DNA of 64,000 bases, taken from assembly GCA_930980855.1 (NCBI GenBank), contig CAKNIZ010000001.1:87198-151197 (forward strand). Reading direction: 5' to 3'. Made by a program: the position numbers and the translations under genes. The notes beneath the pieces are model-generated. The model ran no database searches. It was given only the letters and a program-made list of their open reading frames with translations, and was not told where the DNA came from. How positions within the stretch are numbered: the first letter of the stretch is position 1; the number at the start of each line of letters is the position of its first letter. This document shows, in pieces, positions 6,717 to 33,629 of this stretch. The stretch is from an uncultured Clostridium sp. GTDB taxonomy: Bacteria > Bacillota > Clostridia > TANB77 > CAG-508.

Positions 6717-6791
6717 TGGCAGGGGTAGAAGGATTTGAACCCTCACGCACGGTTTTGGAGACCGGAATGCTACCATTAACATCATACCCCT
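6717..6791 (-). tRNA. trnW: tRNA-Trp (anticodon CCA)
   Basis: The reverse complement gives an AGGGGTA/TACCCCT acceptor stem, a GGTTCAAATCC T-arm, a CTCCAAA anticodon loop and an encoded CCA end. Confidence 0.85.
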
Positions 6792-8773: not shown

Positions 8774-8912
8774 TATTATTTCCTCCTTATTTAAAAATTA
8801 TTCATAAACACATATATCTATTTTACACCATTAGAGCTCAAAAATCAAGCATTTTACATAATTAAAAAATAAATATATGGTTATACTTCATAGCAAAATA
8901 ATGTATAACCAA

Positions 8913-9012
8913 TTGTATATTCCAAGATTTTTTGTTTCTTACTGTCGCTGCTAAAATTCTCCGAATTTTACAGCTCCAAACTGCGCGAAACTGCAAAATC
9001 TTGAATATACAA
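8913..9012. repeat. MITE-like palindromic element, family B copy 1
   Basis: 19-bp terminal inverted repeats TTGTATATTC(C/A)AAGATTTT flank a conserved CTCCAAACTGCGCGAAACTGCAAAATCTTG core. A second copy lies at 30222-30306. Confidence 0.7.
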
Positions 9013-30084: not shown

Positions 30085-30221
30085 TATTAATCCTTCCTTT
30101 TCTCATAAAATGCTATATTATTATATCACAAATTTTACATAAATCAAGGGGTTAACGCTAATTTGTAGAAACTAAATTAAAACTTTGTTACAATTTAGAG
30201 CAAGTATGAAATGCTTTAAAA

Positions 30222-30306
30222 TTGTATATTCAAAGATTTTTTGTTTCTTGCTGTCGGACGTAAAGTCCTCCAAACTGCGCGAAACTGCAAAATCTTGAAT
30301 ATACAA
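30222..30306. repeat. MITE-like palindromic element, family B copy 2
   Basis: Same terminal inverted repeats and conserved arms as 8913-9012. The central hairpin differs (GGACGTAAAGTCC). Confidence 0.7.
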
Positions 30307-30344
30307 TTGTATGAATTTAATAAGAAGCTGTGAATAGTAACTAT

Positions 30345-30917
30345 TTATCCTATTTTATTAGAAAATTTTAATTTTTTTTCATCAAATATTATTGATTTCG
30401 GTATTTTTTTTGACACTATTTTCACATAATTTAATATTAATTTTCTGCAATTATACCTTTTTAGCACACCTATTTGAGAATTTAATCTCTCTAAAATATT
30501 TTCCTGATTATTCTTATTAACTTGTTTAGCCTTAGTTATAACTCTAATAATTGTAGTTTTTTTCGGCTTTTGGTATCCATAAGGATATGAGACTTTTCCT
30601 AGAAAAGGAACTCCATGGCAACATCCTTCAACCAGTTCATTTTCTAGTATTTCCTCTATTTCGTTCATATAAAAGTGCTGAACAACTCTGTCACCAAATT
30701 GTGCAGCATATATTTCTCTTAAAGCTGGGTCTGTAACAACATAACAGTTAGATTGTTTTGGAATATATTTTCTTTGATTTAAGTTGTCCAATATTTCCAT
30801 TAAATTTTTGCATAATTCATCATTTACAAAACTGTATGTTCCTATTTTCCTTTTTTTATTCTTTAAGCAAGAAATATATGCTGCATATAATTCATCAAAT
30901 GTTAAATTATCTTCCAT
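30345..30917 (-). CDS. DGR reverse transcriptase, internally truncated (about 190 aa, lacks catalytic core)
   Basis: The N-terminus (FDELYAAYISCLKNKK..IYAAQFGDRVVQH) matches DGR RT motifs 1-2, and the C-terminus (LNSQIGVLKRYNCRKL) resembles the RT thumb. No YxDD or motifs 3-7 are present. The six-frame ORF 30345-30989 extends upstream through the TR. Confidence 0.65.
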   Translation of the reverse strand: MEDNLTFDELYAAYISCLKNKKRKIGTYSFVNDELCKNLMEILDNLNQRKYIPKQSNCYVVTDPALREIYAAQFGDRVVQHFYMNEIEEILENELVEGCCHGVPFLGKVSYPYGYQKPKKTTIIRVITKAKQVNKNNQENILERLNSQIGVLKRYNCRKLILNYVKIVSKKIPKSIIFDEKKLKFSNKIG

Positions 30918-30955
30918 AGCCAACCACTTCCTTAAAAATTTTAATATAATGAAAC

Positions 30956-31080
30956 TCGCCGCCAGACGCACGTAGTTAGTGTTGTTCACATTGTTGTTGT
31001 TAATGTTGCCGTTGTTAAAGTTCGCGTTATAAGCGTTGTTAGTATTGTTCTGCGAAGACGACCAGCACCACGAACTAAGA
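30956..31080 (-). repeat. DGR template repeat (TR)
   Basis: The 125-bp segment is homologous to 31337-31461. The coding (minus) strand is rich in AAC codons (NNTNNAYNANFNNGNINNNNVNNTNY). Confidence 0.85.
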
Positions 31081-31308
31081 TACTCAACAACCAGCCTGCC
31101 TATTTCTTTTATATATTTCTTGATTTATCTTTTTTGTGGCTTCGTCTATTTTTGTTTGAGTCCAATGATTTTTCTTTACTTTTTCTGTTTGCTCCATTTT
31201 TTTATTCTTTCTATACAATTTTTTAAATACTTGGTCAAACCAAAATCTTCTTACGAAGCTTTTTTCGGTTTGACCTTTCGCCCGTTATTTACATAACGTG
31301 CGATTTTT

Positions 31309-31336
31309 CTTTCTAATTTTTTACAAAATTAGAAAG
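31309..31336 (-). promoter_or_regulatory. hairpin immediately 3' of VR (DGR homing stem-loop candidate)
   Basis: CTTTCTAATTTT-TTAC-AAAATTAGAAAG is a perfect 12-bp stem overlapping the target stop codon. It is absent at the equivalent position next to the TR. Confidence 0.55.
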
Positions 31337-32402
31337 TCGCCGCCAGACGCACGTAGCGAGTGACGTTCACACCGTTGGTGAAAATGTTGCCGTAGGAAAA
31401 GTTCGCGATAAAAGCGGTGTCAGTATAGTCCTGCGAAGACGACCAGCACCACGAACTAAGACCGTAGTCGTCATAATTGCTTGACGTAATATTTAGTGGT
31501 TCTAGTACCTCTCCTCCAAATGCTGCCCATTCTGATCTTGATGGAACGAACCATCCTTTTTCTATTTTGCTTTTTCCATCTTCTTCTTTTGTCTGGATTA
31601 TTCCCCACATATCATTTGCATTTTGATTTCCGTATTCTGGTACATTCCAACTTGCTATCATTCTATTTGTATTTTTTCTTCCTGTTGGTTCCTCTCCAGC
31701 TTTTGCAAAGTCATTTTCTGTATCATCTACATTATACTGACTGTCTAAGTCTCCTTCTTTATACCAATAATGTGTGTTAGCATCAAAATCATCCAATGCC
31801 ATTACATAAAATCTTTCATTTCCTTGGCTTCCTTTTACTGGCGCTACTACTTTTCCAGTTCCAAAGTCATCTGTTACTTCCTCTTCTTTTACATAATATT
31901 CTTTAAATCTTCTCTCTACTGGAATTGTATAATCTCCCCAGTTATCTCCCCAATTTCCATCTCCAGTATTTCCTCTAGCTAGGTCCGCAAATATTATTCC
32001 ATCTACTGTTCCATTATCATCTATATCTGCATAATAGCATGTTCCACTTTCTGTTTCTGGAAATTTCTCTATTTCTACCCTTGTTCCTGTTATTTTTACC
32101 CCATTTACATACGCTGTTTTTCCTAATGCAATATCTTCTGGAGTTGCATTAGCATCAGATGTATCTAGTACTTCTAATGTTCCTGTTATTCCACCTATTG
32201 TTATTCCCTTTTTTATATTATTCGCTATTAAACTTGAATTTGTATTTTCTCCTGCTAAATAGTTTTCTACTTTTGCTTGTTGTTTTACTACTACATTTCT
32301 TATTAGTATACTTCCTATTATTATTACGATTAAAACTATTACTGTAATTAATATTATTAATCTCTTTTTCTTATCATCTTGCATTTTAATTTGTTTTTTC
32401 AT
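31329..32402 (-). CDS. DGR target protein: membrane-anchored, C-terminal C-type-lectin-like/DUF1566-like variable domain
   Basis: An N-terminal TM is present. The C-terminal GWFVPSRSEWAAFGG...SWCWSSSQ is followed by the VR (last 41 aa, ...RYVRLAATF). Confidence 0.8.
   Translation of the reverse strand: MKKQIKMQDDKKKRLIILITVIVLIVIIIGSILIRNVVVKQQAKVENYLAGENTNSSLIANNIKKGITIGGITGTLEVLDTSDANATPEDIALGKTAYVNGVKITGTRVEIEKFPETESGTCYYADIDDNGTVDGIIFADLARGNTGDGNWGDNWGDYTIPVERRFKEYYVKEEEVTDDFGTGKVVAPVKGSQGNERFYVMALDDFDANTHYWYKEGDLDSQYNVDDTENDFAKAGEEPTGRKNTNRMIASWNVPEYGNQNANDMWGIIQTKEEDGKSKIEKGWFVPSRSEWAAFGGEVLEPLNITSSNYDDYGLSSWCWSSSQDYTDTAFIANFSYGNIFTNGVNVTRYVRLAATF
31337..31461 (-). repeat. DGR variable repeat (VR)
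   Basis: Across the 79 variable positions, the TR and VR differ at 20 sites, and every one is a TR adenine on the coding strand. The flanking 46 bp are identical, and a GC-rich GTCTGGCGGCGA IMH-like box lies at the 3' end. Confidence 0.85.
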
Positions 32403-32531: not shown

Positions 32532-32550
32532 ATATATATATATATATATA
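32532..32550. repeat. (AT)9 dinucleotide microsatellite
   Basis: GATATATATATATATATATAC lies in the leader region upstream of the DGR target gene. Confidence 0.8.
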
Positions 32551-32681: not shown

Positions 32682-33629
32682 TTATAAGCCTTTTATCTCT
32701 TCTTCACTCAATCCTGTTATTTCCTCTATATCTTCCTCTTTCATTCCTTTTTCTTTCATTTTTTTTGCAATTTGCATTTGTTTTGATTTTTCTCCTTCTG
32801 CAATTCCAACCTTTTTGCCCTTTATAATTCCTTCTTCTATTCCAGCTTCTCTTGCTCCAGCCATTCCACTATCATAATTGTATTTTGCCATTAATCTTGC
32901 TTCATATAGTTCTCTTTCTTTTGGGTCCATACTCATTTCATCTACTAATATTCCTGCTTTTTTTACTTCTTCATTCTTATCCTCTGCCATTTTGATTTTT
33001 TCCTCCCTTCCACTTATTAGCCATAGCCACTGTTCTAGCTTTCCTTCTACTCCTGGATTCTTTTTTATAAATTTCGGCATTTCTATAAAGTGCATTTCTA
33101 ATTCTTCTGTTGCATTTTCATCTTCTACTTTGTATCCCATATCTACATATTCATTTGGTTTTATTTTTTCAAATTTCATATGTGCTACATGATGGTAACT
33201 TCCTCTTTTATATAATATGTAGTTTAGTATTATTATAACTATTGATTTTTTTAATGCTCTATAATCTTCTGTTTTTTGGATTTGCGTTGCGATGTTTTTG
33301 CACATATATACTGTTGACCTTTGTTTCATATTGTATTCATCACTTACTTGCATTTCAATATCTACTACTGTATTCCCATTGATTTCTGCTTTTATATCCA
33401 GTATACTTGCTTTTTCTTCTATTAGCTCCTTTGGTATTTCGCTATTCCTTACCTCTAAATTTGTTATTTTTACTTCTAGTATTGCTTCTAATAGGTCTTT
33501 TAAAATTCCTGTTGTTCCTTCTTTAGTAAATGTACGTTTGAATATGTAATCATTTAATAAAGGTAATTTCTCTGGCTTTGCCATTTTTCCTCCTTCTATT
33601 CTAACAAATTGTTTACGTTTTTTCAACAA
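32682..33629 (-). CDS. Rpn/YhgA-family recombination-promoting nuclease (paralog of 1635-2555)
   Basis: LLNDYIFKRTF at the N-terminus and C-terminal EAGIEEGIIKGKKVGIAEGEKS repeats match the family. The final ...ITGLSEEEIKGL motif is shared with the paralog. Confidence 0.75.
   Translation of the reverse strand: MLKKRKQFVRIEGGKMAKPEKLPLLNDYIFKRTFTKEGTTGILKDLLEAILEVKITNLEVRNSEIPKELIEEKASILDIKAEINGNTVVDIEMQVSDEYNMKQRSTVYMCKNIATQIQKTEDYRALKKSIVIIILNYILYKRGSYHHVAHMKFEKIKPNEYVDMGYKVEDENATEELEMHFIEMPKFIKKNPGVEGKLEQWLWLISGREEKIKMAEDKNEEVKKAGILVDEMSMDPKERELYEARLMAKYNYDSGMAGAREAGIEEGIIKGKKVGIAEGEKSKQMQIAKKMKEKGMKEEDIEEITGLSEEEIKGL

Follow-up and report, generated by a model that had tools for sequence, protein, structure and literature searches.

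The locus described here is very probably a chromosomal DGR of an uncultured gut Clostridia species that has been inactivated by two deletions. An in-frame deletion of 564 nt has cut residues 101–288 out of the reverse transcriptase (RT), from motif 2 to motif 7 and including the YVDD aspartates, and, judging from the missing motifs, the remaining 190-residue product should be unable to polymerize DNA. A deletion of 474 nt between CAGGCT repeats has left 35 codons of the accessory gene and taken with it the RNA segment upstream of the TR. The VR was probably written earlier, through adenine-specific mutagenic retrohoming from the TR, which is still intact. It could no longer be rewritten in cis and would be inherited like an ordinary fixed allele.

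Organization of the locus

The locus lies within a stretch of 64,000 nucleotides (64 kb), hereafter called the window, which has a GC content of 27%. In the order of transcription, the minus strand carries the target gene, the VR, three stem-loops, a short ORF stump, the TR, the 190-aa ORF, a palindrome, and the genes tig, clpP, and clpX. The individual features are arranged as follows:

31329–32402, minus strand: target gene, an ORF of 357 aa with an N-terminal membrane anchor
31337–31460, minus strand: VR, the final approximately 40 codons of the target, 85% identical to the TR
31335–31310, 31302–31279, and 31275–31233, minus strand: three stem-loops immediately 3′ of the VR, with 4-nt G-T-N-A loops
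31084–31218, minus strand: accessory-gene stump, which aligns to accessory residues 1–35
31093–31098, minus strand: junction of the 474-nt deletion (relative to L039), CAGGCT, the kept copy of a 6-nt direct repeat
30956–31079, minus strand: TR, 124 nt with 40 adenines, intact
30345–30917, minus strand: RT remnant, 190 aa from the ATG at 30917, with motifs 1–2, motif 7 (GVPFLG), and the thumb
30618/30617, minus strand: junction of the 564-nt deletion (relative to L015 and L039), GTTGC / CATGG, without microhomology
30217–30311, unstranded: palindromic element between the RT stop codon and tig, outside the DGR

The palindromic element, which had been noticed as a MITE-like sequence at 30222–30306, is real and extends over 30217–30311. 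It is approximately 95 nt long, has 38-nt arms and a predicted folding energy of about −34 kcal/mol, and a second copy is located at 8911–9012 of the window. Several contigs from metagenome assemblies (L028, L035, L038, L044, and L046–L048) terminate within the element, which points to a MITE- or REP-like repeat present in multiple copies in the genome. Upstream, the target gene is adjoined by a PD-(D/E)XK_2 / Rpn-type gene (recombination-promoting nuclease-like; 32682–33629, minus strand), which is present in the window, L026, and L039–L041, and missing from L029 and L033–L035. A (TA)9 tract at 32533–32550, about 130 nt ahead of the start codon of the target, has between 7 and 10 units depending on the strain; its length could affect promoter spacing and the expression of the target. 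A scan of the whole window at Rfam gathering thresholds identified a tRNA at 6720–6791 and nothing else.

The reverse transcriptase remnant

The original prediction of an RT-like ORF of about 190 aa, starting from the ATG at position 30917 and keeping N-terminal motifs and a thumb, is confirmed, and both motifs 1–2 and the thumb are found. Residues 5–95 of the ORF align with residues 13–102 of the Bordetella DGR RT (PDB: 8ub7), and residues 97–145 give a weak, below-threshold HMMER domain against residues 252–299 of the same structure, near the ‘FLG’ motif. The ORF has no match to Pfam RVT_1 and contains no YVDD. In an alignment with full-length relatives, columns 123–310 are absent from it, and the comparison with L015 and L039, two loci from the same species, directly reveals the loss of exactly 564 nt, or 188 codons, in frame. 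The lost segment, residues 101–288, comprises R-x-GKG, the catalytic Asp motif, IGNLTAQ (motif 4), and YVDD. Motifs 3–7 had all been thought missing; motifs 3–6 are indeed gone, YVDD included, but motif 7 (GVPFLG) is kept. The full catalytic motif set (1–7) of a DGR-clade RT is present in the intact alleles of the species and missing from the window ORF, and the 190 residues do not hold all seven motifs, since 564 nt are absent relative to the intact allele. A hidden or frameshifted RT core was considered and rejected, as a search of all six frames of the 64-kb window with the RT-family profile matched the known frame only.

A fully intact cassette, composed of the target, a 153-aa accessory gene, the TR, and a 378-aa RT, is seen directly at the same tig–clpP–clpX site in the conspecific loci L039 and L043. 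The 378-aa RT matches RVT_1 over residues 64–295 (E = 8e-17) and contains both YVDD and IGNLTAQ. Motif 4 of DGR RTs usually reads (I/L/V)GxxxSQ, whereas it is IGNLTAQ here. L015, which is 97–99.7% identical to the window over 5 kb, occupies the same site and also encodes a 378-aa RT, so that a full-length RT, sought among related strains as a check, is found in L039, L043, and L015. Because the remaining RT sequence of the window has no SNPs relative to the intact RT allele of L015 and L041, the RT deletion appears to be recent, a reading that is well supported.

A scan of one genome per species identified 25 related loci (L001–L025), all from uncultured gut Clostridia or Bacillota MAGs. In fourteen of the species representatives both the RT and the accessory gene are complete, and in about eight of the 25 the RT or the accessory gene is deleted or interrupted. 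In several of the metagenomic proteins P0002–P0012, the in-frame deletions inside the RT differ from one protein to the next. Their left breakpoints tend to follow residues ~90–125, a clustering towards which the search method is biased. A naturally short form of the RT was considered and rejected, as P0012, P0004, P0002, P0003, and P0010 have different internal deletions. The short RT is read as the product of decay and not as a conserved architecture because the internal deletions of the relatives differ and 14 of 25 representatives are full, and the intact allele at the same site in the same species shows that the window RT has become short through deletion. In the related species that contains L017 (MAG BRZ_HP bin8), the RT gene is interrupted at codon 214 by an insertion of 3.4 kb (6642–10087 of L017), which encodes three adjacent tyrosine recombinases resembling a ‘recombinase in trio’. 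A further locus of the family in this MAG, L023, is intact. L018 also breaks at codon 214, at the end of its contig.

The 190-aa product might have acquired a new function, RNA-binding, regulatory, or dominant-negative, and be kept by selection. The deletion is in frame, the ORF is open on about 100 contigs, and both the thumb and the fingers segment at the N-terminus are still present. However, any deletion has a one-in-three chance of being in frame, and most of the copies are clonal (73 are identical), which makes the open frame little informative. Moreover, the stump gathers deletions and amino-acid changes (P0129, P0138, P0133, and P0137): in P0129, found on eight contigs, a deletion extends from inside the TR to RT codon 70, and in P0138 a deletion has occurred between LYAA and IYAA repeats. 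The usual partner of the RT, the accessory protein, is lost as well, and the different internal deletions in other family members point to decay and not to a conserved short form. We consider a selected function of the stump highly improbable.

It is scarcely credible that the deletions arose from mis-assembly of a repeat-containing region. The TR and VR repeats can mislead assemblers, and many of the related contigs are short, but the same junctions occur in dozens of assemblies that were made independently, in different studies and with different assemblers, and they are positioned outside the TR/VR repeat.

The accessory gene and its stump

The spacer between the TR and the target contains the ORF at 31084–31218, which has 44 codons when counted from a TTG and 37 from an ATG, the latter being the number originally predicted. 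The ORF had been read as free of any trace of an accessory gene, yet it is not random sequence: it is the N-terminal stump of that gene, formed by the first 35 accessory codons followed by two foreign codons and a stop. The expectation that no Avd would be present is borne out to the extent that there is no full accessory gene, but a 35-codon Avd-like stump remains, and it is the sole match of the accessory-family profile in the window. Comparison with the intact conspecific locus L039 directly identifies the loss of 474 nt between two copies of CAGGCT, which takes accessory codons 36–153 plus roughly 110 nt upstream of the TR.

A 153-aa ORF is conserved between the target and the TR in 14 of the 25 species representatives. 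The protein has no match in Pfam (PF05635 included), in NCBIfam, or in a profile search of the PDB; none of the 120 listed of its 594 homologues carries a Pfam domain. The AlphaFold model of the protein (pLDDT 77, pTM 0.65) is a helical bundle preceded by a helix at the N-terminus, and it superposes on Avd. The isoelectric point of the protein is 9.4, and that of Avd is typically 9.5 ± 0.7 (PMC5758913). On the grounds of predicted fold, charge, and gene position we call the protein Avd-like and expect a corresponding role; since a helical bundle is a generic fold, the label does not claim sequence membership in the Avd family.

The loci L040, L041/L015, and L044 of the same species combine a 378-aa RT and an intact TR with the 474-nt accessory deletion, and their VRs are mutually different. 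L028 has the same RT junction as the window together with a different accessory deletion, of 38 codons, and an unrelated VR. The accessory and RT states thus occur in all four combinations (the window, L015/L040, L028, and L039), from which the order of the two deletions is not derivable. Because the RT junction lacks microhomology, the four combinations are attributed to recombination and not to a recurrent identical deletion. Among catalogued DGRs, an Avd or another accessory gene is present in about 74%, and about a quarter lack avd (Wu et al. 2018, PMC5758913), so the loss of the accessory gene alone is no proof of inactivation.

Template and variable repeats

The TR and the VR are 85% identical, and all 18 differences within their 124-nt core fall on TR adenines, which occupy 40 of the 124 positions. 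The same adenine-limited pattern is repeated in 14 related loci, with 15–24 differences each. Adenine-only differences between TR and VR are the DGR signature, in keeping with the past diversification of the VR that the original prediction held. The TR is unchanged across loci of the same species except for one allele with T14/T71 (L042 and L047).

Family profiles for the RT and the accessory gene, together with the search for a further TR, identified no second TR, RT, or accessory gene in the 64-kb window. Copies of the TR were sought as exact matches to a 31-nt stretch that was taken from the TR 3′ end and reaches just past the TR. The scan gave no matches in viral contigs and, in metagenomes, one further dead cassette at the same locus, and therefore no TR copy in another genomic context within these collections.

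The target gene and downstream hairpins

The VR forms the 3′ end of the target gene, that is, its last ~40 codons. The C-terminus of the target has a weak Lcl_C/DUF1566 match, whose E-value of 0.13 does not reach the Pfam cut-off. The body of the gene without the VR (31469–32199) has a polymorphism of ~4%, mostly amino-acid changes, as well as a 6-nt indel at 31755, in contrast to less than 0.5% between strains in the RT–tig region. The polymorphism of the target body is consistent with diversifying selection or recombination acting on a surface protein.

RNAalifold analysis of the stem-loops from nine species yielded 31 base pairs, 11 of which have compensatory changes. Stem-loop 1 includes the stop codon of the target and is invariant across species, and compensatory changes are found in stem-loops 2 and 3. 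In phage BPP-1, a hairpin/cruciform downstream of the VR is required (PMC3240598), and the stem-loops are similar to it in where they lie and in the size of their loops. The stem-loops of the window may act as target-recognition hairpins, as a terminator, or as both.

Population pattern of the variable repeat

The exact 190-aa stump is found on 73 public contigs, and the exact target protein, including the VR, on 56. Among the 56 contigs with the window haplotype there is no VR polymorphism, whereas across the species there is (45 target variants). L026 and L027, from two other samples, are identical to the window from 32130 to 27345, which covers the VR, the spacer, the TR, the RT stump, and tig, whereas 13–26 differences are present in the flanks outside this interval. 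A sister cluster of the same species, with targets of 359 aa, has 45 members, which include both intact and damaged cassettes; among those listed, the VRs of the 14 full-length members are all different, and each occurs on one to three contigs. The check for VR polymorphism in related strains that had been proposed thus gives a constant VR in the window haplotype and differing VRs in the sister cluster. It is well supported that the VR of the window haplotype is, in all likelihood, frozen. The original reading of the locus as a relic, inactivated recently and with its VR frozen, gains support from the two deletions, the SNP-free RT remnant, and the invariance of the VR on 56 contigs.

An appearance of continued diversification comes from cassettes with the same deletions and differing VRs (L029–L032, L049, and L033–L035), which alone could speak against inactivation. 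L029–L032 have the same two deletions as the window, and their VRs differ from that of the window at three to six positions, all on TR adenines. L049 has the same two deletions and a VR unrelated to that of the window, and the triple-deleted cassettes L033–L035 carry three unrelated VRs. The small VR differences are not a sign of activity after the deletions, because a comparable difference, at about three adenine sites, separates the VRs of L039 and L043, whose cassettes are intact. The reassortment of VRs and dead cassettes is explained by homologous recombination, because the SNPs of the spacer are mosaic among haplotypes, the VR of L040 has the T14/T71 markers of the TR allele in L042 and L047 and not those of its own TR, and L049 contains a 2.85-kb tract identical to the window (31357–28501) within flanks with dozens of SNPs. 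At the level of sequence, it is demonstrated that homologous recombination reshuffles VR alleles and dead cassettes. The VR differences between the window and L015 had been considered as proof of activity after the loss of the accessory gene, and this argument was dropped once recombination had been shown.

The original prediction offered trans-dependence as an alternative, in which an RT and an Avd encoded elsewhere, in another DGR or a prophage, rewrite the VR using this TR or an identical one. Identical dead cassettes linked to different VRs (L049, L033–L035, and L028) would fit such activity, as would the restriction of the small differences among double-deleted loci to TR-adenine positions (6/6) and the retention of the TR and of the hairpins on the target side. 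It is known that components of DGRs can work in trans and on remote targets (PMC5758913), and one related MAG has two loci of the family (L017 and L023). Nevertheless, the VR of the window is invariant on 56 contigs, a few adenine-site differences also separate the VRs of the intact loci L039 and L043, and the L049 tract, the mosaic spacer SNPs, and the L040 VR markers are signatures of recombination, which accounts for unrelated VRs on dead cassettes and makes trans activity unnecessary. The 474-nt deletion has also removed the segment upstream of the TR; for the Bordetella template, flanking upstream and downstream RNA is described as needed for cDNA synthesis in a preprint (bioRxiv 10.1101/2023.10.23.563531). 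In addition, the window contains no second RT, accessory gene, or TR, a conspecific MAG yielded a single locus with an RT of this family, and the 31-nt TR scans of viral and metagenome collections gave no copy in another context. As the visible genome amounts to 64 kb, a trans-acting RT retains a small probability, and we regard it as quite unlikely.

Inactivation by deletion, the preferred explanation, leaves room for selection on the dead cassette. The cassette may be a favoured allele that has spread by homologous recombination in a gene-specific sweep, either because it locks successful VR states or because the RT is costly to keep. In public assemblies, about 100 contigs carry dead alleles and about 20 carry intact ones, a ratio of roughly 5:1. 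The same 564-nt junction is found on the diverged backgrounds of L028, L049, and L033–L035, a window-identical tract of 2.85 kb is embedded in the diverged flanks of L049, and four or more loss-of-function deletions of independent origin are segregating at the locus. However, sampling bias and clonal expansion could yield the same counts, and for this reason we consider a sweep possible but rather unlikely.

Comparison with known systems

The window locus is best filed as an inactivated DGR, the result of ordinary gene decay of a kind that is already known, as it falls short of a working DGR in its RT, its accessory gene, and its activity. Large surveys class many DGRs as inactive (PMC8144416). 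Our literature searches found such surveys of ‘inactive’ DGRs and strain-level loss in Treponema, and no description of this DGR family. In annotation, we recommend the label inactivated DGR for the locus, RT pseudogene for the 190-aa ORF, avd-like stump for the spacer ORF, and fixed allele for the target. The species provides a natural series of intact, accessory-less, RT-less, and TR-truncated cassettes at one site with abundant metagenomic sampling, which could be used to ask when gut bacteria keep or discard hypermutation. Because accessory-deleted strains with a full RT exist, they constitute a natural test of whether the Avd-like protein is needed in retrohoming. Neither use of the series changes what is known of the DGR mechanism.

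The intact form is a B1-type DGR with a divergent accessory protein. It shares its gene order with the BPP-1 DGR (mtd-avd-TR-brt; architecture B1, Wu et al. 2018, PMC5758913), which it also resembles in the adenine-only differences between TR and VR, the C-terminal VR, the small basic helical-bundle accessory protein, the GC-rich 3′ ends at which VR and TR match, with one differing base after them, and the stem-loops with 4-nt loops just 3′ of the VR. Furthermore, Brt can be aligned with the RT of the intact conspecific loci, and the model of the accessory protein superposes on Avd. The element of the window differs from that of BPP-1 in being chromosomal and adjoining tig–clpP–clpX, with no phage genes seen, and in having had both the RT core and the accessory gene deleted. 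The accessory protein of 153 aa has an extra N-terminal helix and no sequence match to Avd in Pfam or the PDB. The hairpins have G-T-N-A loops and AT-rich stems, whereas those of phage DGRs have GRNA loops and GC-rich stems (PMC3240598).

The loci L040 and L041/L015, with a TR and a full RT and no functional accessory gene, are similar to DGRs of architecture A, which make up about 29% of those catalogued (Wu et al. 2018, PMC5758913). However, the absence of the accessory gene is secondary here, caused by a 474-nt deletion that left a 35-codon stump, and is not the ancestral design. In Treponema denticola, 8 of 17 isolates have VR-bearing targets and neither a TR nor an RT (PMC4891356, Table 1). 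The two systems are alike in that the DGR machinery is present or absent at the level of strains within one species, with diversified targets left behind. In contrast to T. denticola, the machinery of the locus described here was broken in place by defined deletions while the TR stayed intact, and the alleles found side by side at this single locus, which recombine with one another, range from intact through half-broken to fully broken.
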